Below are positions 20,987 through 34,034 of a stretch of 64,000 nt of DNA, piece by piece. Under the pieces are notes generated by a model. That model made no database searches and was not told the origin of the DNA. It saw only the letters and a program-made list of their open reading frames with translations. A program made the translations under genes and the position numbers. The stretch is from positions 32,001 to 96,000 of the forward strand of contig JAZAMN010000071.1 of NCBI GenBank assembly GCA_036229005.1, given 5' to 3'. Origin of the DNA: Myxococcota bacterium. GTDB taxonomy: Bacteria; Myxococcota_A; UBA796; CAJQPC01. Numbering within the stretch: position 1 is the first letter of the stretch; every line of letters begins with the position of its first letter.

Positions 20987-22987
20987 TCACGGCCCCGCCT
21001 GCACGACCGCGCCCGTGCGCACCGCCTGCTCGGGGACCTGGACCGCAAAGACCTGCCCCCCGACCTGCAAGGCTGCGGTCGGCGCCGTGGTGACCTCGCC
21101 GATGGATCCGGTGGCGTAGGGCACGCGCAGAGACCAGGTCCCGTCGGGGTGGACCTGGGTGAAAGCACGCCACGGCCACCGCTCCTCCCCCCAGGCCAGC
21201 TCCTGCAGGTAGCCGACCTTCTGCCCCGGCTGTCCGTGGCCCTGGAGCACCGCGCCCGGCACCCGCTCGTAGACCCAGGCCCCAGGCAGACCCGGAGCCC
21301 GTAGATCCTGCGCCTGCGCGGCGAACACCAGCCGCAGCCCGTCCACATGCCCGGCCCCCTCTGCGCTGCTTCCGGCCTGCAGGAGCGGGTGCCCGGGGGG
21401 GAGCTCGTGGGACTCGACCAGCAGGTAGCGGTAGGGGCCGCCGTCCATCAGCGCCAAGAGCTCGGGGACGCCGCCCGCGTACATGTCCTGGGTGGCCTGC
21501 CAGCGCTCGACCCCGCCCGCGTAGCTCCCAAAGTGACCGATCGCGGCGGGCTTTTGGCCGATCACCGTGATCCAGTGCCCGTGGTCCCAGAGCCCCAGCA
21601 CGCCGTACTCCGGGGCCTGGGGGTCCACCGGGGGCGTCCCGCGGGCCAGGAAGTGGTAGGCCTCGAAGCTCCAGGGGACCTGGTACTGGCGCGCCTTGGG
21701 GCGCAGGTAGAAGAAGCTCAGGGCGTTGGGGCTGAACAGCAGCAGGCTGAGGCTCGCCAGGGGCAGGAAGCGATGGAGGGAGGGCTTGACGGCGCGTCCC
21801 AGGGCTGCGGCCAACACCCACGCAAGCAGGGGGGCAAAGCTCCAACCAAAGCGGTTCTGGATGCAGGCGAGGACACCGGCTCCCAGGCTGGCCAGCAGCA
21901 ATCCCAGGTGCTCACGTCCCGCCTTGTACGCCAAAAATCCCCACGCAAACGGGAAGGCGTAGAGCCCCCAGCCCAGCATGCGCGCGGGCTGCACCCAGGG
22001 CTGTTGGCTGTGGGAGAACAGGGGCTGCATCTCGGGGATGGAGGCCAGCCAGGGGTCGCCGGTCAGCAGCCACTCCCGCAGCCCGGTCCAGACGAAAGGA
22101 CCCAGCGCCACGCTCCCCACCACGAGGGCGATTCCGCCCCCGCCCAGCAGCAGCCGCCGACGCTCCGGGAGGGTGCGCAGCGCCACCGCCCAGGCCACCG
22201 CCGCCGCCCCCGCGAGCAGCGCCGTGGGGTGGAACGCCGACATCTGCGCGTAGGTGAAGGGTGTGCCCTGGGCGATGCCCATGGCCGTCGCTATCGGGAA
22301 CACCAGCGCGCTGCCCAGAAGCATCCCGCGCACCGGCGCCCAGTCGCCATCCAGCACCGCCCGCAGCCCCAGCGCCGCCATGCCCAGGCCCGCATAGAGC
22401 AGGCCGCCCACCCAGCCCAGGCAGGCCATGGCCAGGCCCCCGGCGACCTCCCAGGGGCGCACCTTGGGGCGCAGCGCCGCCACCGTCAGCCAGAGCAGCG
22501 CGAAGCCCTCCACCGCGTTGTGGTCCAGGCGCGCGAACTGCGTGGCCGCGACGTGCTGGGGGGTGCCCGCGAGCAGCAGCCCGGCCAGCAGCGCCACCCA
22601 GGCTCCGCCGCGCTCCCGGGCCGCCGAGAGCAGCAGCGCGACCGCCCCCACCCCGGCGACCAGGGGGGCCAGCGCCACCGTGAATTCGCCGAGGCCGAAG
22701 GGGCGGCCCAGCGCCATCCACAAGGCCAGCCAGGCGTCCCACCCCGGCGCCCAAGGCACCGGCGCCCCCTCGGGGAAGCCCAGGAAGGGATCCTGCACCG
22801 ACGGGATCCCGTAGGGGGGCGAGAAGAAGCTCGCTGCGCGCCGCAGGTGGTAGGCAGAGTCGGCGTCGGCGGGGACCAATCTCCCCGCGGCAAAGTGCGC
22901 GGCGGGGCTGGCCAGCCGGACCGCAGCGGCCAAGGTGAGCACCGCCCCACAGAGCAGGGGCCATCGCTGGGGCGGGGTCGGAGGCAT
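20987..22987 (-). CDS. STT3/AglB/PglB-family oligosaccharyltransferase (archaeal AglB-like)
   Basis: DADSAYHLRR (EL1 acidic motif), D.FL.FPEG..V.W.PG.D, LDHNAVE, SIPEMQPL (TIxE-like), QNRF, WDHGHWI (WWDxG), C-terminal DGTWSLRVPYAT; many TM helices. Confidence 0.82.
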   Translation of the reverse strand: MPPTPPQRWPLLCGAVLTLAAAVRLASPAAHFAAGRLVPADADSAYHLRRAASFFSPPYGIPSVQDPFLGFPEGAPVPWAPGWDAWLALWMALGRPFGLGEFTVALAPLVAGVGAVALLLSAARERGGAWVALLAGLLLAGTPQHVAATQFARLDHNAVEGFALLWLTVAALRPKVRPWEVAGGLAMACLGWVGGLLYAGLGMAALGLRAVLDGDWAPVRGMLLGSALVFPIATAMGIAQGTPFTYAQMSAFHPTALLAGAAAVAWAVALRTLPERRRLLLGGGGIALVVGSVALGPFVWTGLREWLLTGDPWLASIPEMQPLFSHSQQPWVQPARMLGWGLYAFPFAWGFLAYKAGREHLGLLLASLGAGVLACIQNRFGWSFAPLLAWVLAAALGRAVKPSLHRFLPLASLSLLLFSPNALSFFYLRPKARQYQVPWSFEAYHFLARGTPPVDPQAPEYGVLGLWDHGHWITVIGQKPAAIGHFGSYAGGVERWQATQDMYAGGVPELLALMDGGPYRYLLVESHELPPGHPLLQAGSSAEGAGHVDGLRLVFAAQAQDLRAPGLPGAWVYERVPGAVLQGHGQPGQKVGYLQELAWGEERWPWRAFTQVHPDGTWSLRVPYATGSIGEVTTAPTAALQVGGQVFAVQVPEQAVRTGAVVQAGP

Positions 22988-23020
22988 CGGCGTGGCATCA
23001 TACGCGCCGTGCACCCCCCC

Positions 23021-23728
23021 ATGACCGATCCCCTCCTCTCGGTGGTCATCCCCGTCTACAACGAGGCCGCCACCCTGCGCGAGCTCGTGGAGCGCGTGGC
23101 CGACACCCCCTACCGCCTGCAGATCATCTGCGTGGACGACGGCAGCAGCGACGGGAGCTGGGAGATCCTGCAGCAGCTCCAGGACGAGCTGCCCATGCTG
23201 GAGGCCCACCGCCAGCCCGAGAACGCCGGCAAGGGCGCTGCGCTGCGGGCGGGCTTCTCCCACGCCCAGGGCGACCTGGTGCTCATCCAGGACGCCGACC
23301 TGGAGTACGACCCCGTGGACTACCCCGTGCTCCTGGAGCCGCTGCTGGACGGCCGCGCGGATGTGTGCTTTGGAAGCCGCTTTCTTGGCGGCCCACACCG
23401 CGTGCTCAACTTCCACCACTACCTGGGCAACCGGGCGCTGACGGCCCTGAGCAACCTGGCCACCAACCTGAACCTGACGGACATGGAGACCTGCTACAAG
23501 GTCTTCCGCCGCGAGGTGCTGGACGGCATGGTGCTCACCGAAGACCGCTTCGGCTTCGAGCCCGAGTTCACCGCCCGCGTCGCGGCCGGGGGCTTCGCCG
23601 TCTACGAGGTCCCCATCTCCTACTCGGGCCGCACCTACGACGAGGGCAAGAAGATCACCTGGAAGGACGGCGTGCGCGCTCTGCGGGTGATTGTCTCCAC
23701 CCAGGTCCGGCTGCGCCTGGGGCGCTGA
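23021..23728 (+). CDS. GT2 glycosyltransferase, polyprenol-phosphate glycosyltransferase (DPM1-like)
   Basis: LSVVIPVYNE, VDDGSSDGS, NAGKGAAL..GF, IQDADLEYDP, GSRF, TDMETCYK, FGFEPE, EVPISY.GR...EGKKI.W.DG. Confidence 0.92.
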   Translation: MTDPLLSVVIPVYNEAATLRELVERVADTPYRLQIICVDDGSSDGSWEILQQLQDELPMLEAHRQPENAGKGAALRAGFSHAQGDLVLIQDADLEYDPVDYPVLLEPLLDGRADVCFGSRFLGGPHRVLNFHHYLGNRALTALSNLATNLNLTDMETCYKVFRREVLDGMVLTEDRFGFEPEFTARVAAGGFAVYEVPISYSGRTYDEGKKITWKDGVRALRVIVSTQVRLRLGR

Positions 23729-23808
23729 ACCCCCGCCCGGCTGGGCCCTGGCCTGTAAAAGAGAGGGCTGACCCCCTATACTCCCCCGGTTCCCCGCCCG
23801 GAGAGTGA

Positions 23809-26241
23809 ATGCACCTGCTCGCGCCGCTGCTGCTGGCCGCCCCCGCCTTCGCCCAGGAGACCGCCCCAGAGGCGCCCGCTCCCGAGGCCACCCAGGCCGC
23901 CGAGGCGCCACCCCCTGAGGCCCCCGCCTCCTTCGGGGACCGCGCAGACGCCGCCTTCGGCAAGTGGGTCGTGGGCCCCCTCGCGAGCGTGATGTTCTTC
24001 GACCTCTACCGGGGCGACGAGACCCTGGACGTGGACCCCAAGCACGTCGGCAAGGTCGTGGATGGGCGCCAGATCCTGGGCATCGAGGGCGAGCACTTCG
24101 TCCTGGCCCCCGTGGTCGAGCTGGAGCTCCCCCAGGCCTTCCCCATGTACCCGGAGCTCGAACTCCAGGGCGACGGCCCCGCCCGCTGGGGCTACCTCTC
24201 CCGCGAGGCCGACCACGTCCCCTACACCCTGCTGGTGGTCCAGGAGACCGAGATCTCCGCGGAGCAGGCCGGCGAGCTGGTCCCCCTGTCGGCGTTCGAC
24301 GGCGCCCTCAAGGCAGAGCCGCGGCTGAGTGATGAAGACGCACACTTCGTCTCCACCGCTCTGGCCCCCTTCCCCCTCGTGCTCGCCCAGACCCGCTCCA
24401 CCAGCGAGGACACCGGTGCGGAGACCAGCCCGGACACCGTGGACCCCAGCCGCCCCCTGCGGGTGCTCCCCCTGGAGCTCCCCGCCCCCGAGCAGCGCCC
24501 GGAGCTGTCCATCGGCGGCAGCATCCTCACCCTCCAGGGCCCCGCCAAGGTCCTGAGCATCGACGGCGACCAGGTCATCGCCCAGACCGGCCCCGCCGCC
24601 GTCGAGACCGAGCCCGTCGCCAACACCCGCGCCATCACCCTGCCGGTGGTCGTGGTCTGGCTGGTGCTGGGCGCCATCTTCTTCACCCTGCGCATGAACT
24701 TCATCAACCTGCGCGGCGTGGGGCACGCCATCTCCGTCACCAAGGGCGACTACGACAACGAGGAGGATGAGGGCGAGATCTCCCACTTCCAGGCCCTCAG
24801 CTCCGCCCTGTCCGCCACCGTCGGCCTGGGCAACATCGCCGGCGTGGCCGTGGCCGTGGCCGCCGGCGGTCCCGGCGCCATCTTCTGGATGATCGTGGCC
24901 GGCTTCCTGGGCATGTCCAGCAAGTTCGCCGAGTGCACCCTGGGCCAGATGTACCGGGTGACCGACGCCAACGGGAACGTCAGCGGCGGCCCCATGCGCT
25001 ACCTGAGCGCCGGCCTGCAGGAGAAGGGCATGGGGGGCCTGGGCAAGGTCCTGGCCGTGATGTTCGCGCTGATGTGCGTGGGCGGCAGCTTCGGCGGCGG
25101 CAACATGTTCCAGTCCAACCAGAGCTACCAGGCCGTGGCCGACGTGGTCCCCGTGCTGGCCCCCAAGGCCGAGGGCGAGGTCCGCTTCGAGCGCACCCGC
25201 GCCGAGGTCGATGTGGTCGTGCCCAAGAAGACCGCCCTGACGGTCGGCGACCACAGCTACGTGACCCTCAAGGAGGTCACCGTCCCCGCCGGCGAGCTCA
25301 GCTCTCCCCCCGTCAAGGTCCGGGCCCTCCAGGCCAGCGAGGCCAGCAACCTGGCCGACGGCGCCGCGCTCTCCGTGAGCGTCGTGGGCGTCAGCGGCGC
25401 GGTGGCCACCGGCGAGATCGACGGCGGGGCCGCTCCCCGCGCCTGGCTCTACGGCCTGATCATCAGCTTCGTGGTCGGCCTGGTCATCATCGGCGGCATC
25501 AAGTCCATCGGCAAGGTCGCGGGCGTCATCGTGCCCGTGATGACCGGCGTCTACGTGCTGGCGGCCATCTGGATCCTGGTGGCCAACGCCGACCAGATCG
25601 GAGCCGCCTTCGGCACCATCGTGGGCGGCGCCTTCACCATGAAGGCCGGCTTCGGCGGCCTGCTGGGCACCCTGATCCAGGGCTTCCGCCGCGCCGCCTT
25701 CTCCAACGAGGCCGGCGTGGGCTCCGCGTCCATCGCCCACTCGGCGGCCAGCACCGACGAGCCCGTACGCGAGGGCATCGTCGCCCTGCTCGAGCCCCTG
25801 ATCGACACCATCATCGTGTGCACCATGACCGGCCTGGTGGTGGTCATCACCGGGGTCTACGAGTCGGACGTGGGCGACGGCGTGCTGATGACCTCGGCGG
25901 CGTTCGAGAGTGTCCTGGACTGGTTCCCGCTCATCCTGTCCCTGGCGGTGGTCCTGTTCGCGTTCAGCACCATGATCAGCTGGTCCTACTACGGAGAGCG
26001 GAGCTGGACCTTCCTCTTTGGGGCGCGCAGCTCCATGGTCTACAAGCTGCTCTTCCTCTTCTTCGCCTTCCTGGGCTCGGTCATCAAGCTGCAGTCCGTG
26101 CTGGACTTCTCGGACCTGATGATCCTGGGCATGGCCTTCCCCAACATCCTGGGCGTCGCCCTGCTCTCCGGCAAGGTCCGGGCCGCCCTGGACGACTACT
26201 GGGGCCGCCTCAAGCGCGGCGAGATGAAGCCGGTGAACTGA
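23809..26241 (+). CDS. Alanine/glycine:cation symporter (AGCS/AlsT family) with large N-terminal extension and internal beta-rich insert
   Basis: ISHFQALSSALSATVGLGNIAGVA, GGPGAIFWM, KFAECTL, GGPM.Y, GN..Q.N, RAAFSNEAG.GS, FAFSTMISWSYYG, PN. Confidence 0.92.
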   Translation: MHLLAPLLLAAPAFAQETAPEAPAPEATQAAEAPPPEAPASFGDRADAAFGKWVVGPLASVMFFDLYRGDETLDVDPKHVGKVVDGRQILGIEGEHFVLAPVVELELPQAFPMYPELELQGDGPARWGYLSREADHVPYTLLVVQETEISAEQAGELVPLSAFDGALKAEPRLSDEDAHFVSTALAPFPLVLAQTRSTSEDTGAETSPDTVDPSRPLRVLPLELPAPEQRPELSIGGSILTLQGPAKVLSIDGDQVIAQTGPAAVETEPVANTRAITLPVVVVWLVLGAIFFTLRMNFINLRGVGHAISVTKGDYDNEEDEGEISHFQALSSALSATVGLGNIAGVAVAVAAGGPGAIFWMIVAGFLGMSSKFAECTLGQMYRVTDANGNVSGGPMRYLSAGLQEKGMGGLGKVLAVMFALMCVGGSFGGGNMFQSNQSYQAVADVVPVLAPKAEGEVRFERTRAEVDVVVPKKTALTVGDHSYVTLKEVTVPAGELSSPPVKVRALQASEASNLADGAALSVSVVGVSGAVATGEIDGGAAPRAWLYGLIISFVVGLVIIGGIKSIGKVAGVIVPVMTGVYVLAAIWILVANADQIGAAFGTIVGGAFTMKAGFGGLLGTLIQGFRRAAFSNEAGVGSASIAHSAASTDEPVREGIVALLEPLIDTIIVCTMTGLVVVITGVYESDVGDGVLMTSAAFESVLDWFPLILSLAVVLFAFSTMISWSYYGERSWTFLFGARSSMVYKLLFLFFAFLGSVIKLQSVLDFSDLMILGMAFPNILGVALLSGKVRAALDDYWGRLKRGEMKPVN

Positions 26242-27830: not shown

Positions 27831-29300
27831 ATGGCCCAGCAGTACCGTCAGACCCAGACCCCCGCCGCGGCCCCCGAGGCGGCGCACGCCGGTCACGACC
27901 ACGGCCACGACCACGGCCACACCCACGGGAACGCGGCGGCGCAGGAAGACCTCCTGGGCGGCGCCCGCAGCAACGCCCCGGCCAGCCGGGAGGCCGCTCT
28001 TCGGCGTCACGCTGACAACCGCGCGCGCATGAACAGCGTGCTGGGCCGAATGCTCGCGCGGAACCCCGGCTCGGACGATCATGACGAGCTGATGGAGCGC
28101 AACAGCGCGGAGTGGATCAACAACGGCGAGGCCCGGGCCGTCGTCCTCACCCCCATCCACGACGCCCACGAGCGCCCCGGGGTCCCCGCCGGCAAGGACG
28201 CCTTCTTCGATGGGCGCAAGGCCTTCCACGAAGACGGCGCCACCTACTCGACCAACGTCAACGACATGAGCGGCATCGAGCTCAAGAACCCGGGGGCGGG
28301 CGGCACCATGTCCAACGACGGGCGCACCCTGACCGTCATCGACCCCGAGCAGTGGAACAGCGACACCACCCTGATCGACGTGATCGTCCACGAGGTCCAG
28401 CACGACGCCGACCAGCACGGCCAGGGTCAGGTCTGGGAGTTCGACCGCCCCGCTGCCGTGGCCGGGCAGGCCGACCGAGCCCCGGACTGGTGCTACAACA
28501 GCTACGCCTCCGAGTTCCGCGCCTACTGGACCATGAACGAGGAGGGCTCTCGCGGGGACGCCTTCGCCCGCTCCAGCAACACGCGGGTCTCCAACTTCAA
28601 CGTGACCGCGGTCCATGGCGGCCAGAGCCACACCGTGCAGACGAACTTCTCCAACAAGCGCCAGCAGGAGATCTTCGAGCACATGTACAAGGAGATCGTC
28701 GGCCACCAGTACAAGGTCAACGGCCAGTGGGTCGCGGTCAACTACGCCTACCTGCCGCACTACTACGCCACCGATCCCGCCTTCAAGGCCTTCATCGACG
28801 GCCTCACCCAGCCCACCGGCGGCAACCTCATCAACTCGGTGCGCATCCAGAACCTCTCCGAGCGCATCCAGCGCGGCAGCCTGGAGCCCGAGCTCTCCCA
28901 GCTCGACGCCCACGACCGCCGCTTCTTGGCCGACCAGACCGCCTCCGCCGAGTTCTGGTCCCACGCCAGTGGGCGCCTGAGCCGCTCTGAGCAGGCCACC
29001 CTCCAGGCCGCCGTGTTCGGCACCGCGACCCCCGCCGCCGCCACCAGCACCGCAGCCGCCGCGCCGCAGATGAGCACCGCCGAGCTCGAGGCCGCCACCC
29101 GCGCCTCCGCCGGTGGTGGCGCCACCCCCCAGCAGAGCGGCGTACAGATCAGCGTCGGCGCCGGAGACACCCTGGGCAGCCTCGCCGCGCGCCACCTGGG
29201 CAGCAGCAGCCGCTGGCAGGAGCTCTACGCCGCGAACACCGACATCATCGGCAGCGACCCCAACCGCCTCCAGGTGGGCATGCGCCTGCGCCTGCCGTGA
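27831..29300 (+). CDS. LysM-domain protein with central HEXXH (zincin-like) motif and His-rich N-terminus
   Basis: VIVHEVQH...Y.SEFRAY; C-terminal VGAGDTLGSLAARHLG....W.ELY.AN..I...P..L.VG..LRLP (LysM); HAGHDHGHDHGHTH. Confidence 0.8.
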   Translation: MAQQYRQTQTPAAAPEAAHAGHDHGHDHGHTHGNAAAQEDLLGGARSNAPASREAALRRHADNRARMNSVLGRMLARNPGSDDHDELMERNSAEWINNGEARAVVLTPIHDAHERPGVPAGKDAFFDGRKAFHEDGATYSTNVNDMSGIELKNPGAGGTMSNDGRTLTVIDPEQWNSDTTLIDVIVHEVQHDADQHGQGQVWEFDRPAAVAGQADRAPDWCYNSYASEFRAYWTMNEEGSRGDAFARSSNTRVSNFNVTAVHGGQSHTVQTNFSNKRQQEIFEHMYKEIVGHQYKVNGQWVAVNYAYLPHYYATDPAFKAFIDGLTQPTGGNLINSVRIQNLSERIQRGSLEPELSQLDAHDRRFLADQTASAEFWSHASGRLSRSEQATLQAAVFGTATPAAATSTAAAAPQMSTAELEAATRASAGGGATPQQSGVQISVGAGDTLGSLAARHLGSSSRWQELYAANTDIIGSDPNRLQVGMRLRLP

Positions 29301-29650
29301 GCTGGCTGCTGCTGCTGGCCTGCCACCGCCAGGACCCGCCCATGATGCAGCCCAAGCCCCTGGACCCCGCCCCGGTGACCTCGCCGGCGGAGCAGAGCCT
29401 CACGCTCGTGCGCGGGGAGCCCCAGGCCCTGCTCGGTGGGCAAGTGATCCTGGAGCAGGCCACAGCCTCCTCCACCTTCGTCCACGACTGGGAGGAGGTC
29501 ACCACCCCCGCCTTCGGCACTCTGCGCTTTGAGCGCGACGGAAAGGTCGAAACCGTCGACTTCGAGCAGGACGCCACCCTCCACGTCTGGGGACGACAGA
29601 TGGTGGTGCGGGGACCCCAGGGCGATCAGCTCGTCGTGCTGAGCGACTGA
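29297..29650 (+). CDS. Small lipoprotein coupled to the LysM gene
   Basis: GTGA overlap; (M)SWLLLLAC lipobox. Confidence 0.65.
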   Translation: MSWLLLLACHRQDPPMMQPKPLDPAPVTSPAEQSLTLVRGEPQALLGGQVILEQATASSTFVHDWEEVTTPAFGTLRFERDGKVETVDFEQDATLHVWGRQMVVRGPQGDQLVVLSD

Positions 29651-30819
29651 GCCCGCCAGGCCCGCCACAGCGCGGCCTCATCCCAGGGCGTGCTCGCCGT
29701 CATCGGGACCTCCCGGTGGTAGCGGGCCATCTCCACTGCGAAGCCCGCGTCGTCCCGCTCGAACCACTGGGCCGCCTGAACGTCTCCGTGGATCAGGCGC
29801 TCGAAGCGGAGGCGGAGGACCAGGCGACATGCGATCCCAAACCCCTGGGGATCCAGGCCCGCCGGGACCTCTCTGCACCTGTAGGCCCGCGCGAGGTGCG
29901 GCTCGGTCAGCCCGACCTCGTTCTCGTCCAGGAGTTCAAGTGCGGCGTTCAAGCTGCCTTGTTGTGGCTGCCCCAGGGGCAGCCCATGGTGGACCGAGAG
30001 CTCCCGGGCGCGCTGCAGCTCCTCCCTCAAGCGGGGGATCTCGGGGGCGCCGAAGCTGCCCTCCACGCGCTCCAAGGTGACGCCGCGCAGGCCAGGACAG
30101 CGGGGCAGGACCTGCTCCAGCAGCGCCCAGACGGGCTCGGGGATGGCGTCGTCGTGGGAGTCCAGGCGGCGGCGGCGGTCGGGGCTCCAGGCGGGGGGCG
30201 CGTCCTTGCCGCCGGAGATGTGGATCTCGATCACGCGGTCCAGGGGGGCGGCGTCGAGCCAGGCCTGGGGGGACTCGCCGGCGTTGATGGCGCCGGTCCA
30301 GAGGTTGTGGACGTCCAGCAGCAGGTGGTGCTCCTGGCCCAGGGACTCGCCCAGAGCGCGGGCCTCGTCGGCCATGGGGCCGGGCCAGGCGTAGACGGCG
30401 GAGTTCTCCACGGCGGCGGTCCCGACCAGGGCCCGCAGGTAGCCCAGGCGGCGGCGGAGTCGGGCGGGGGGTGCGTCGATGGGGACGGGCAGGCCCACGT
30501 GCTCGCTGCCCAGCTTGACGGCGCCCAGGTGGTCGGAGGCCCACAGGAAGCGGAAGATGGCGTGGTCGCGGGCCAGGGCGCGCAGGTGTTCGGGCCAGTG
30601 GCCGCCCTCGGCCCCGCAGAGGTTGGCGGCGACCCCGTGGGCCACGAAGGGCAGCGCCCCGGCGAGCTGCGCCAGGATGCCGTGGAAGGCGTTGGGCGCC
30701 CGGCCCGGCCCCCACAGGGTCTCCGGGGTCACCCCGCCGTAGTCGATGTCGTCCAGCAGGGGCTCCAGCAGGGCCAGGGCCTGCCGGTCCGGGGGGAACA
30801 TCAGGCCGACGGCGGCCAC
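29626..30819 (-). CDS. DUF692-family multinuclear non-heme iron oxidative enzyme (MNIO) with C-terminal extension
   Basis: Ordered motifs VGL, TPET, AHGV, ASDHLG, AVEN, LLLDVHN, EIHISGG, LDSHDD, VW.LL, VTLER; ~110 extra C-terminal residues. Confidence 0.9.
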   Translation of the reverse strand: MAAVGLMFPPDRQALALLEPLLDDIDYGGVTPETLWGPGRAPNAFHGILAQLAGALPFVAHGVAANLCGAEGGHWPEHLRALARDHAIFRFLWASDHLGAVKLGSEHVGLPVPIDAPPARLRRRLGYLRALVGTAAVENSAVYAWPGPMADEARALGESLGQEHHLLLDVHNLWTGAINAGESPQAWLDAAPLDRVIEIHISGGKDAPPAWSPDRRRRLDSHDDAIPEPVWALLEQVLPRCPGLRGVTLERVEGSFGAPEIPRLREELQRARELSVHHGLPLGQPQQGSLNAALELLDENEVGLTEPHLARAYRCREVPAGLDPQGFGIACRLVLRLRFERLIHGDVQAAQWFERDDAGFAVEMARYHREVPMTASTPWDEAALWRAWRAQSLSTTS

Positions 30820-31572
30820 TCAGATGCCCTGGAAGTCGGCGACGTCGTGCAGGTAGAGGAAGCGGCGGCTGCCCTCGGGCACGTGGCCCATGCCGCAGTC
30901 GATCGCGTATTGGCTCTCCACGCCCTCGATGTCGGTGCCGCAGCCCCAGGAGCTGGCCCAGTGCGCGCCCGCGGGGGCCTTGGTGACCAGCGCGGCGCGG
31001 ACCTTGGCGCCGTCTCCGGTGGGCGCGGGGCCCAGGCGCTGGAGCACCGGGTAGAGCGCGCCCTGGATGGCCTGGCCCTCGGCGGCGATGCGGGCCTTGT
31101 TCCAGGCCTCGTGCTTGGGCGTGCCGTAGTCCGGGTCGCCAAAGTTGGGATCCTGGTCGGGGTCGACCTTGGGGAGGGTGACGGCCACGCCCTCGGCGGT
31201 CAGCGGGTCCAGGCGAACGACCACGAACCAGTCGTCCTCGCTGACCTGCAGGTCGGGCACCAGCTTGCGCACATCGGAGGCCAGGGCGAACACCACCTCG
31301 GCCGCGCTCAGGGGCGCCAGATCCGCGTCGCTGGCGTTGTTGAGCCACTGCCCGAGCTGGTTGCCGCGGGTCCACTTTGCGCCGTCGTCGGCGGGGATGA
31401 GCATGACGAGCACCGCCTTCTTGGCGCGGGCGGCGCTCTGCCAGGCCTTGGAGAGGGCGGCGCGCTGCTCGGCGGGCGAGCCGCTGGCCAGGGCCACGCC
31501 GGACCAGATCGGCGCGGACAGGGCGCCGGCGGACAGGCCCAAGGCGGCGCGGAGGAGCATGCGGCGGTTCAT
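30820..31572 (-). CDS. Tat-exported protein, paralog 3 (C-terminal GCG-x13-CGMGH motif)
   Basis: MNRRMLL...ALA|SGSP; GAHWASSWGCGTDIEGVESQYAIDCGMGHVPEGSRRFL; stop abuts the DUF692 start. Confidence 0.85.
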   Translation of the reverse strand: MNRRMLLRAALGLSAGALSAPIWSGVALASGSPAEQRAALSKAWQSAARAKKAVLVMLIPADDGAKWTRGNQLGQWLNNASDADLAPLSAAEVVFALASDVRKLVPDLQVSEDDWFVVVRLDPLTAEGVAVTLPKVDPDQDPNFGDPDYGTPKHEAWNKARIAAEGQAIQGALYPVLQRLGPAPTGDGAKVRAALVTKAPAGAHWASSWGCGTDIEGVESQYAIDCGMGHVPEGSRRFLYLHDVADFQGI

Positions 31573-31633
31573 GGAGTCTCCAGCTTGGATCGCGCTGTGG
31601 AATCAACGCGGGGATCGACACGGTACACCGGCG

Positions 31634-32365
31634 TCATCCGGTGAACTCCGAGACGTCGTGCAGGAAGAGGAAGCGCTGGCTCGCGGCGGGCACGTGGCCC
31701 ATGCCGCACTTGACCCGGTACTGCGGCTCCACGCCCTCGATGTCGGTGCCACAGCCGGAAGACCGGGCCCAGTGTGCGCCCGCGGGGGCCTGCTCGACGA
31801 CCTGGGCGCGCACCTGGGGACCGCAGCCGGCGGGGGCGGGCGCCAAGCGCTGGAGCACCGGGGACAGGGCCCCCTGGATGGCCGCGTTGTTGGCCTGGAT
31901 GCGCTCCAGCAGCACCGCCTCCTCCACCGCGTCGAAGGCCCGGAACTGGGCGCGCTCGGCGTGGGGCAGGCTGGGCCGCAGCAGCTCACCGCGGGCCCGG
32001 GCGGGCTGCACCACCGCGAACCAGTCGGCGTCCTGGGCGCGCAGCGAGGGCAGCAGCTTCTGCAGATCCGCGGGCGTCGCGCACACCACCTCCACCCCGC
32101 CCAGAGCCTCGAGCTGCGCGTCCGTCGCGTGGTTCAGCCACTCGCCCAGGAGCTGCCCGCGGGCGTCGCGGGCCTCCGACTGGTCCTCGCCGGGCATGAG
32201 CAGCACCAGCAGGCCCCGCTCCCCCTCCGCCGCCCGCCGCCAGGCCTCCGAGAGGGCCGCCCGCTGCTGGGTGGGGCTGCCCGAGGCCAAGCCCAGGCGC
32301 GGAGCCAGGACACTCAAAGCACCCATTGAAAGCGCAGCTTGGAGGATCGCTCGCCGCTTGATCAT
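31634..32365 (-). CDS. Tat-exported protein, paralog 2
   Basis: MIKRRAIL...GLA|SGSP; GAHWARSSGCGTDIEGVEPQYRVKCGMGHVPAASQRFL; ATG overlaps the upstream TGA (TGATG). Confidence 0.85.
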   Translation of the reverse strand: MIKRRAILQAALSMGALSVLAPRLGLASGSPTQQRAALSEAWRRAAEGERGLLVLLMPGEDQSEARDARGQLLGEWLNHATDAQLEALGGVEVVCATPADLQKLLPSLRAQDADWFAVVQPARARGELLRPSLPHAERAQFRAFDAVEEAVLLERIQANNAAIQGALSPVLQRLAPAPAGCGPQVRAQVVEQAPAGAHWARSSGCGTDIEGVEPQYRVKCGMGHVPAASQRFLFLHDVSEFTG

Positions 32366-33105
32366 CAGAAGCCCTGGAAGCTGGCGACGTCGTTCAGGTA
32401 CAGGAAGCGGCGGCTGGCGGCGGGCACGTGGCCCATCCCGCAGCCGATGGCCACGCTGGTCTCCACGCCCTCCACGTGGGTCCCGCAGCCCCCGGCGATG
32501 GCCCAGTGGGCGCCGGGGGGCGGCTCGTCGATCAGCTTCGCGCGGACGGCCTGCGCCGCGGTGACCTCGACGGGGCCCAGATCTGCCAGCAGGGGTCCGA
32601 GCACCCCCTCGATCGCGATGGTGTTCCCCGCGATCTTCAGACGCACCCACTCCTCGTGCTTCTCCCCATAGAAGCCCTCATCGCCGTAGTCGGGCCGGTT
32701 CGGGGGCGGCGCGGGCAGGGTGACGTTCAGGACCTTGGCGGCCTCGGGGGCCTGGGGGTCCACCCACACGAACCACGCGTCGTCGGCGGCCTTGATCCCG
32801 GGCACCAGCTTCCGCAGGTCCGCGACCGTCGCGCACACGACCTCCACCTGGGACAGGGGCGCGAGCTGGGCGTCGCTGGCGTTGTTCAGCCACTCGCCCA
32901 GCACCTGCCCGCGGGGCCACTTGTCGCCGTCGTCGGGGGGGATCACCAGCACCAGCAGGGGCACCTTGCGCTCGGCAGCGCTGCGCCAGGCGTTGGAGAG
33001 GGCGGCGCGCTGCTCTTTGGGGGAGCCGGAGGCCCAGGCCGTCGGGGCGAGCGCGGGCAGCGCGGCCAGGCCCAGAGCGCTGCGGAGGAGCTGTCGGCGG
33101 TTCAT
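32365..33105 (-). CDS. Tat-exported protein, paralog 1
   Basis: MNRRQLL...AWA|SGSP; GAHWAIAGGCGTHVEGVETSVAIGCGMGHVPAASRRFL; ATGA overlap with the upstream gene. Confidence 0.85.
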   Translation of the reverse strand: MNRRQLLRSALGLAALPALAPTAWASGSPKEQRAALSNAWRSAAERKVPLLVLVIPPDDGDKWPRGQVLGEWLNNASDAQLAPLSQVEVVCATVADLRKLVPGIKAADDAWFVWVDPQAPEAAKVLNVTLPAPPPNRPDYGDEGFYGEKHEEWVRLKIAGNTIAIEGVLGPLLADLGPVEVTAAQAVRAKLIDEPPPGAHWAIAGGCGTHVEGVETSVAIGCGMGHVPAASRRFLYLNDVASFQGF

Positions 33106-34034
33106 CGGATCTCCAGGTCCATCAGGTCTTCCAGGCGGCGCAGGGTGTGCTCCGGGGACTCCAGGCTACCCGCGACCGAGCGCCGCAGGCTCATCACCGG
33201 CCCCTCGGCCCCCGCGTAGAAGTGCACCTGCCCGGCCTCGTCTTCCACAAAGAAGCCGCGCAGGCTGGTGCCGTCGCTCCAGATCAGGCGCAGGCTCCCG
33301 TCGGCGGCCAGCTCGTAGCGGTGTCCCTCTCCGTCCTGGTAGAAGCCCACCAGCAACGGATCCACGCCCAGGCTGCCCGAGCGGATGCTCAGGGTGTCGC
33401 CGCTCAGGGTCAGCGAGTGGGAGGAGGAGGCAGTGCTGGCGGCCCCCGAACCCGTCGTCCTCAACGTCTCCAACTGGATCTGAGCCCCCACCTCCAGCGC
33501 CCGCGGCGACGGCGAGGACACACTGGCGCGCTCCGCGAGCAGCCCCTGGGGCGTCTGGGCGAGCTCCAGGGGGAACAGCGCCTCGACCTCGGGCAGGGCG
33601 GGGTCGGTGAGCAGCTCCCACAGGCCGGGGGTGCGCAGCCACAGGCCGTCGTCGTCGGGGCTGCCCTGGATGCCCAGCTCGGCGGCCAGCGCTTGGGCCT
33701 GATCCCCCTGGACCAGGGCGGCGTCGGGGTCCAGATCCAGCCCGAAGGTGCCGGTCTCGGCCAGCAGCTCCTCGCCGTCGAGGTAGATCTGCAGGAGCTC
33801 GTCGGGGTCGGGGGTGAAGCGGTGATCCTGGCCATCTGGGCCCACCACCCAGGCCTCCTCGTCCCCAAAGACCTGAACGGGCAGGCTGGAGTCCACGAGG
33901 ACATCGCCCAGCTCCAGGACCACCCCCCGCTCCACGGCCTCGGGGCCCAGGATCACCACGCCGGGGGCGTCCTCGGGGGGCGCGCAGGCGGCGAGCGCGA
34001 GGGTCAGGGGGGCGGCGATCCAGGCTCGGGACAT
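33102..34034 (-). CDS. Hypothetical lipoprotein, first gene of the MNIO operon
   Basis: GGAG RBS, MSRAWIAAPLTLALAAC lipobox; stop overlaps the next start. Confidence 0.7.
   Translation of the reverse strand: MSRAWIAAPLTLALAACAPPEDAPGVVILGPEAVERGVVLELGDVLVDSSLPVQVFGDEEAWVVGPDGQDHRFTPDPDELLQIYLDGEELLAETGTFGLDLDPDAALVQGDQAQALAAELGIQGSPDDDGLWLRTPGLWELLTDPALPEVEALFPLELAQTPQGLLAERASVSSPSPRALEVGAQIQLETLRTTGSGAASTASSSHSLTLSGDTLSIRSGSLGVDPLLVGFYQDGEGHRYELAADGSLRLIWSDGTSLRGFFVEDEAGQVHFYAGAEGPVMSLRRSVAGSLESPEHTLRRLEDLMDLEIR

Follow-up and report, generated by a model that had tools for sequence, protein, structure and literature searches.

A family of twin-arginine-signal proteins with a two-cysteine CGMG core, encoded beside one clade of MNIO enzymes, as candidate substrates for cysteine modification

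The window analyzed here is a 64,000-nucleotide (nt) stretch of contig JAZAMN010000071.1 from a Myxococcota bacterium. At positions 29626-34034 its minus strand carries five genes in the order lipoprotein, three paralogs and an enzyme of the MNIO (DUF692) family. The paralogs bear twin-arginine translocation (Tat) signals and are the candidate substrates of the MNIO. The features of this operon are as follows.

33102..34034, minus strand: predicted lipoprotein of 310 residues with a LAAC lipobox, first gene of the operon, accessory and not core
32365..33105, minus strand: candidate substrate paralog 1, 246 residues, with an RR signal, a thioredoxin-like domain (predicted) and C207-x14-C222GMGH
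32428..32487, minus strand: two-cysteine core of paralog 1, first Cys to His, read from the open reading frame (ORF) sequence
31634..32365, minus strand: candidate substrate paralog 2, 243 residues, with C205-x14-C220GMGH
31694..31753, minus strand: two-cysteine core of paralog 2, read from the ORF sequence
30820..31572, minus strand: candidate substrate paralog 3, 250 residues, with C211 and C226 in a small beta subdomain (predicted)
30883..30942, minus strand: two-cysteine core of paralog 3, C211 to H230
29986..30819, minus strand: TIM barrel of the MNIO, residues 1-278 of a 397-residue protein, with H61, H97, E138, D169, H200, D220, H222 and E250
29626..29967, minus strand: helical helper domain fused to the MNIO, residues ~285-397, a separate next gene in other genomes

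The compact operon described in the original prediction was recovered with every ORF in place and with matching junctions: ATGA between the lipoprotein gene and paralog 1, TGATG between paralogs 1 and 2, a 61-nt gap between paralogs 2 and 3, and an abutting TGA/GTG between paralog 3 and the MNIO. The third-position GC was 0.93 to 0.96 across all five ORFs. A sigma-70 promoter and a minus-strand terminator were looked for, and neither was found. In RNA from a Sorangium relative (three runs of one study), a single contig of 1.8 to 1.9 kb covered a substrate gene and most of the MNIO at a depth of 35 to 69, which is a weak hint of joint expression, as the cover around it was patchy and such contigs can neither show a transcript nor exclude DNA. 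The lipoprotein had been listed as a member of this compact operon. It has no Pfam or NCBIfam match, and besides the window just three loci had a homolog immediately before the cassette (G001, E 2e-64; G046, E 4e-4; L079, E 8e-6). Counted by genome, it occurred in 3 of 61, the window's own included, so it is an occasional accessory of the cassette.

The three paralogs are the sole members of their family in the genome, in which tatC is present. Each begins with RR-x-(L/I)-L and has A/G-x-A before SGSP, in agreement with the Tat signals and cleavage site proposed earlier, and the shared C-terminal motif with its C-x14-C spacing was also seen in the alignment as described. The middles of the proteins had been called divergent, but residues ~29-120 as well as the last 60 were well conserved, and variation was found mainly at ~120-165; the identity of the other paralogs to paralog 3 was 53-57%. 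No Pfam or NCBIfam family was named for the substrates, apart from a match of paralog 1 alone to the Pfam family TAT_signal at 18 bits, below the cut-off of 22.7. A homolog search gave 48 proteins, and a profile built from 43 of them matched 917 clusters (50% identity) at E<=0.001 and 433 at E<=1e-30. The family is thus no chance grouping.

Among 147 aligned members, only G74, W205, C211, C226, G227 and R237 were invariant. Motifs were counted in a pool of 297 distinct family ORFs, made up of fetched proteins and locus ORFs with fragments included. The core CG[MLTIF][GA] was present in 288 of them, with GCG at the first cysteine in 254 of the 288 and a median tail of 18 residues after the core. 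The Met/His ending assigned to the motif in the original prediction holds for the window paralogs, but the His is not invariant family-wide: the core read CGMGH in 235/288 motifs, and Tyr or Phe replaced the His in 28 CGMG motifs. The gap between the cysteines was 14 residues in 156 family ORFs and ranged from 2 to 46. RR was found in 271 of 275 intact N-termini, and RR-x-hydrophobic-hydrophobic in 261. A third cysteine, located in the thioredoxin-like domain, occurred in 180 of the 297 members. Every family motif listed reads Cys, although no systematic search for selenocysteine was made.

In six of the 288 motifs, a literal CPxCG[M/L]G short form replaces the long loop, and five of the six lie inside MNIO cassettes. 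The sixth (L139, CPACGMG) came from an independent CPACGMG scan and aligns to the family with 96.6% probability. This divergent member (L139:1688-2569) lies between dnaJ and a dUTPase-like gene, as read from the ORFs, in a 5-kb locus without an MNIO. In two stand-alone members (L019 and L028), both cysteines and the R-F-L tail are gone, although the RR signal and thioredoxin-like domain remain; neither has an MNIO beside it. L281:3310-4185 (G023:C146) and L028 (G229:C87) are stand-alone members without the two-cysteine core or the R-F-L tail, and they provide a natural negative control. In the Planctomycetota loci L045, L107 and L040, the cassettes have four to six tandem paralogs before one MNIO, with long-loop, CPxCG and degenerate cores mixed; in several of these paralogs the signal region is immediately followed by a Cys, as it is in Tat lipoproteins.

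The linkage of the substrate family to the MNIO was examined with the DNA pattern W-A-x3-G-C-G-x(12-22)-C-G-M-G-H, which is blind to the remainder of the protein and to its neighbors. The scan gave 80 loci on 68 contigs. Two of the contigs (L056 and L091) were dropped as chance pattern matches, leaving 66 family contigs. The named records with the pattern were mostly Myxococcota (Sorangium, Minicystis, Chondromyces, Nannocystis and Sandaracinaceae), together with several Planctomycetota. Of the 66 family contigs, 60 carry a same-strand MNIO downstream of the family gene, and in 58 cases the distance is no more than 300 nt. The other six comprise three contigs that end within 70 nt and three true orphans; the genomes of the orphans all carry the same MNIO type elsewhere. 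The MNIO profile used for this count was built partly from the same loci; in 10/10 related genomes, Pfam confirmed the adjacent MNIO independently.

The reverse test, which scored only four to six candidates per genome, covered 401 genomes of the phylum. The MNIO type was found at E<=1e-60 in 11 of them, and all 11 have the family at adjacent coordinates. A clear family match was present in 12 genomes, and the MNIO of the twelfth is cut by the contig end. G333 was not counted as a family member (E 6e-4 over 43 positions). The genome-wide co-occurrence with DUF692 proposed for checking was thus observed in both directions, and homologs of the paralogs mostly do have a DUF692 neighbor: the Tat-signal proteins are very tightly and reciprocally linked to one MNIO clade. 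Up to six paralogs are served by one MNIO. Paralogs without a CGMG core were seen inside the cassettes of L247 and L107, and L037, L048, L054 and L139 are family members standing alone. A rough gene-calling screen of the 66 loci showed nothing conserved besides the cassette: no protease, transporter, DoxX, regulator, sigma factor or metal gene. The Tat-signal proteins are therefore the only plausible substrates in the cassette, and we regard it as highly probable that the family proteins are substrates of the MNIO at all.

The DUF692 assignment of the enzyme was borne out by a match to PF05114 at 102 bits (cut-off 25). The earlier reading of this gene overlooked the ~115-residue helper domain fused at its C-terminus. 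The barrel was modeled with a predicted local distance difference test score (pLDDT) of 96 and could be superimposed on MbnB (7fc0) with a Z score of 25.6 and a root mean square deviation (rmsd) of 2.8 over 256 aligned residues, and also on TglH. H61, H97, E138, D169, H200, D220, H222 and E250 were invariant in 45 rows. By motif and order, H61, H97, D169, H200, D220 and H222 correspond to the iron ligands H65, H102, D179, H210, D228 and H230 of DybH. The enzyme has no signal peptide.

The enzyme matched the available MNIO subfamily models below their cut-offs. On NF050165, the ChrH equivalog with a cut-off of 600, the window MNIO scored 61 bits and two homologs scored 114 and 101, compared with 706 bits for a true ChrH used as the positive control (L160). 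The window MNIO scored 76 bits on NF050167 (cut-off 310) and 66 bits on NF003818 (cut-off 360). We placed the cassette enzymes in two quick IQ-TREE searches of 88 and 71 rows, with MNIOs found beside CPACGMG peptides (one a true ChrH) and other MNIOs from related genomes and plasmids; the second search left out 27 redundant rows and had new outgroups. The cassette MNIOs formed one group (Shimodaira-Hasegawa-like approximate likelihood ratio test, 97 and 97), sister to the ChrH/DybH group associated with CPACGMG (99 and 98), with a joint support of 99 and 96. The bufferin and oxazolin MNIOs fell in a separate clade. Ten alignment columns were common to the cassette and ChrH/DybH groups and present in fewer than 30% of 44 other MNIOs. 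As judged from these sequences, the cassette MNIO is sister to ChrH/DybH and not to the makers of copper chelators.

The genome holds two further MNIO loci, which are unrelated. One (L316, G000:C7:3801-6700) encodes a second type of MNIO, flanked by an AurF-like di-iron gene and a gene of 276 residues without a Pfam match; the locus has no obvious Cys precursor, and homologs from eight related genomes form a long-branch clade of their own. The other (L317, G000:C48:18801-21500) is of the bufferin type, with a Cys-rich precursor bearing a signal peptide and a long Thr/Gly-rich tail, an MNIO (342 bits) and a DUF2063 partner. A genome of the same family (G015) has both a peptide system and a protein system, the former consisting of a ChrH-clade MNIO and a short precursor ending in CPPCGMG (L272:959-1339, G015:C234). 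Two MNIOs (L275, G012:C33, and L278, G046:C141) form a further long-branch pair.

The helper is a helical extension of ~115 residues. All 54 loci with enough sequence have it, 22 of them as a fusion to the MNIO and the other 32 as a gene of its own downstream. Four helper sequences gave no Pfam match, and the helper has no NCBIfam name. The fold-search match lists of the MNIO were filled by its barrel. The predicted structure of the helper resembles DUF2063, SCO6045_C and MbnC-like partners (TM 0.58 to 0.62 by query, a lead only), and hhalign of the helper against DUF2063 was not significant.

Paralog 3 was modeled with AlphaFold2 from 43 sequences at a pLDDT of 86. The model showed an alpha/beta domain at residues 29-180, followed by a small beta subdomain containing C211 and C226. 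Strands at 212-215 and 219-223 were predicted to form a hairpin. The lowest confidence in the mature chain (pLDDT 59) was at residues 221-230, around the second cysteine. Foldseek gave no match to this model at E<=0.001. The best fold match was to 3fk8 (Z 8.2, equal to the tool's bar for a common arrangement; rmsd 3.0; 112 aligned), and the top 50 rows were nearly all thioredoxin-fold proteins, so that the matches were weak but consistent. The substrates are thus predicted to have a thioredoxin-like fold at residues 29-180, like the periplasmic proteins 3fk8, DsbH and SoxS. Unlike these, they have no CxxC within the fold and have an extra C-terminal cysteine subdomain: CxxC is absent from the fold of the three paralogs, and any CxxC was found in only 2 of 297 members. 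A CuA-like reading of CGxxH was dropped because the His varies and there is no cupredoxin fold.

The closest published system, as described in the accessible part of the paper, is MelA1/MelH/MelHc from Melainabacteria, in which the modification of the 34-kDa protein MelA1 by MelH requires MelHc (PNAS 2026, PMC13056109). Folded proteins as a new kind of MNIO substrate, as had been proposed, were thus already on record. The two systems share a protein-sized exported substrate with a CGMG core near the C-terminus, as well as an MNIO accompanied by a small helical domain, which depending on the lineage is either fused or encoded separately. However, MelA1 is a TPR protein that carries a Sec/SPI signal and ends in CPACGMG, whereas the present proteins have an RR signal, a predicted thioredoxin-like fold, a first Cys usually 14 residues upstream, a conserved R-F-L tail after the core and a sister-clade enzyme, and the helper is ~115 residues compared to ~7.8 kDa. 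The chryseobasin systems ChrA/ChrH, DybA/DybH and ArlA/ArlH (PMC10214503, PMC13733907) share the CGMG target and the six aligned iron ligands, as far as the available text of these papers goes, and ArlA, with its embedded motif (PMC13056109), shows that an embedded core is accepted. Their substrates, however, are short peptides or lipopeptides with CPxC spacing, as opposed to proteins of ~250 residues with C-x14-C, and cassette MNIOs score 61 to 114 bits on NF050165, which has a cut-off of 600. The system would work like MelA1/MelH/MelHc but is not a ChrH-subfamily member by clade, model score or motif spacing.

These comparisons suggest how the cassette may work. Its three parts are thioredoxin-like proteins with export tags, an MNIO dedicated to them, and a helper domain, which in the window belongs to the MNIO chain. 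The cassette genes are co-oriented, overlapping and reciprocally linked across genomes, and the MNIO retains the six iron ligands named for DybH and lacks a signal peptide. According to the available text on the sister clade, ChrH-subfamily enzymes act on CPxCGxG (PMC10214503, PMC13056109), and the product of the ChrH/DybH type is 4 Da lighter (-4 Da) without an ultraviolet (UV) feature (PMC13056109). The DybH reaction begins at the second Cys, uses the amide nitrogens of Gly and Met and closes the ring last, and glutathione adds in place of the first Cys when the latter is removed (PMC13733907). By analogy, the second Cys (C226) would be oxidized to a thioaldehyde and rearranged with the backbone of the following Gly and Met into a hydantoin. 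The upstream Cys (C211) would then close the ring, with a net change of -4 Da, one free thiol and no near-UV band. The ring would be a loop of ~16 residues compared to the 4-residue ring of ChrA/DybA. A distant first Cys could close such a larger ring, since DybH closes last, glutathione can substitute, and the predicted hairpin could hold the first Cys close to the second. The folded product would be exported by Tat, and signal peptidase I would cleave before SGSP. Tat export implies folded cargo. In the weakest step, the stapled loop and the free thiol might form a soft-metal or redox site on the thioredoxin-like scaffold, in the periplasm or outside the cell; the His of CGMGH varies within the family, and the cassette has no linked metal gene. 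We consider this whole chain, from the -4 Da hydantoin rearrangement at CGMG and the ~16-residue staple without a near-UV chromophore to Tat export, to have slightly better than an even chance of being right. The copper-type chromophore product suggested earlier is not supported, as the sister enzymes give -4 Da without a UV feature and no conserved metal genes lie nearby, and copper binding of the product is unsupported.

Several observations weigh against this chain. The window paralogs are without the CP of CPxCGxG and have C-x14-CGMG instead, and none of the substrates in the accessible parts of PMC13056109, PMC10214503 and PMC13733907 has a 14-residue spacer. The cassette MNIOs are not part of the ChrH clade, and the two groups carry different residues at four conserved columns (P32/F, E33/D, D96/E and L219/R), so the cassette chemistry may differ. 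The trees were quick searches without bootstrap and contained no TglH or MbnB row, and the best PDB match of the MNIO was TglH, with no ChrH-type structure among the matches. The first half of the helper aligns by eye with the ChrH bundle, but hhalign of the helper against ChrH C-termini was not significant. The window copy of the MNIO may itself be impaired, since it sits on a long branch and has Gly at position 29, where all ChrH-type MNIOs, the other MNIOs and 85% of the cassette MNIOs have Glu. L139, an RR-signal member with CPACGMG, has no MNIO within 2.5 kb. Finally, the genomes are related and the locus sets overlap, and the linkage counts thus overstate independence.

An unlikely alternative, toward which the original prediction leaned, is that a 5-thiooxazole or oxazolone-thioamide forms at each Cys-Gly independently, giving a copper-chelating protein. 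In the accessible portion of PMC12452194, the bufferins and oxazolins (BufABC, HvfABC) have the same order of substrate, MNIO and partner, with Cys-Gly targets, exported products and tandem precursors, and also Sec signals, DUF2063 plus RRE partners, DoxX, copper-binding products of the thiooxazole type and a separate MNIO clade. Consistent with such a product, a Gly follows both cysteines as in EGKCG (GCG at the first Cys in 254/288 motifs), Met and His follow the second Cys-Gly, the predicted structure of the helper was likened to DUF2063-type partners, and the BufB model gives the window MNIO a slightly better score (76 bits) than the ChrH model does (61). However, the enzyme groups with ChrH/DybH and apart from the bufferin and oxazolin MNIOs, the His is replaced in 50/288 motifs, the helper has no Pfam DUF2063 match, the 66 loci share no conserved DoxX, sigma factor or metal gene, and the genome carries a separate bufferin-type locus.

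The family proteins could instead be left unmodified, as exported disulfide or metal-binding proteins that are co-regulated with an MNIO whose substrate lies elsewhere, or as its accessory. The small beta subdomain in the AlphaFold tail, where the two cysteines could form a disulfide, the stand-alone members L037, L048, L054 and L139 and the core-less cassette paralogs of L247 and L107 would fit this reading. We find it quite improbable, given the reciprocal linkage to the MNIO, a core identical with the known ChrH-subfamily target and the loss of the cysteines in two members without an MNIO beside them; the pLDDT of 59 over the second Cys is also as expected of an accessible loop.

Little credence is given to the thioredoxin-like domain being only a carrier or recognition scaffold, with cleavage after export releasing the modified C-terminal segment as a small chryseobasin-like peptide. 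The core is indeed modular and near the C-terminus (median tail of 18, spacer of 2 to 46), with up to six paralogs per enzyme. However, the 66 loci show no conserved protease, the whole family keeps the N-terminal domain, even in core-less members, and the folded state of Tat cargo argues against this role. It is very improbable that the MNIO oxidizes only the CGMG Cys and leaves a protein-derived catalytic group without a ring, with the reaction halted at an intermediate or diverted from it (for instance to formylglycine, or through trapping by another thiol). In favor of this, DybH variants give formylglycine and glutathione captures the intermediate without the first Cys (PMC13733907), four conserved columns separate the cassette clade from ChrH, and a third Cys occurs in 180/297 members. 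Against it, the first Cys is invariant in 147 aligned homologs, and D220 and H222 are intact; these are ligands of the third iron, and in DybH their loss leads to formylglycine.

The hydantoin-staple reading has a further form, which we regard as possible but rather doubtful. The dedicated MNIO clade would act as a protein stapler that makes a hydantoin-thioaminal cross-link over a variable loop of 10 to 46 residues in a folded thioredoxin-like protein, a new protein-derived cofactor, with Tat export as the checkpoint for completed modification. The rare CPxCGMG members would be the evolutionary bridge to the chryseobasin peptides. If the enzyme does close rings over 10 to 46 residues, it would offer a new way to cross-link folded proteins. 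PMC13056109 describes the chryseobasin ring as having no known function, and the family would be the first folded scaffold on which that function could be studied. Several hundred clusters share the core within one conserved fold, and short-ring, long-ring and cysteine-less versions exist naturally among them, which would allow a direct test of ring function.

The original prediction did not recognize the substrate family among described MNIO systems, and we likewise found no paper on it, although these MNIOs could be among those in the PMC12452194 figure supplement or in the PMC13056109 enzyme lists. In the literature searched, no MNIO substrate family was described as Tat-exported. The available text of the PMC12452194 survey limits its signal-peptide screen to proteins of <200 residues and does not mention Tat, none of its named new families matches the substrate family by length or motif, and its So ce56 MNIO accessions appear only as counts in a table. 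Some supplements aside, the searchable literature contains no account of MNIO substrates with a Tat route, a thioredoxin-like scaffold or a long variable loop, nor of the sister enzyme clade. The best reading, if true, would extend a protein modification first published in 2026 to a large unnamed protein family.

Around the operon, a LysM protein (489 residues) and a small predicted lipoprotein (window 27831-29650) converge on the end of the MNIO gene with a 25-nt overlap, and a divergent SDR gene begins ~130 nt upstream of the operon. Further away, window 23809-26241 encodes a sodium:alanine symporter of 810 residues with a long N-terminal extension and an inserted soluble stretch. On the minus strand, window 20987-23911 encodes a multi-pass membrane protein with an AglB_L1 C-terminal domain, which lies back to back with a glycosyltransferase-like ORF and is possibly oligosaccharyltransferase-like.

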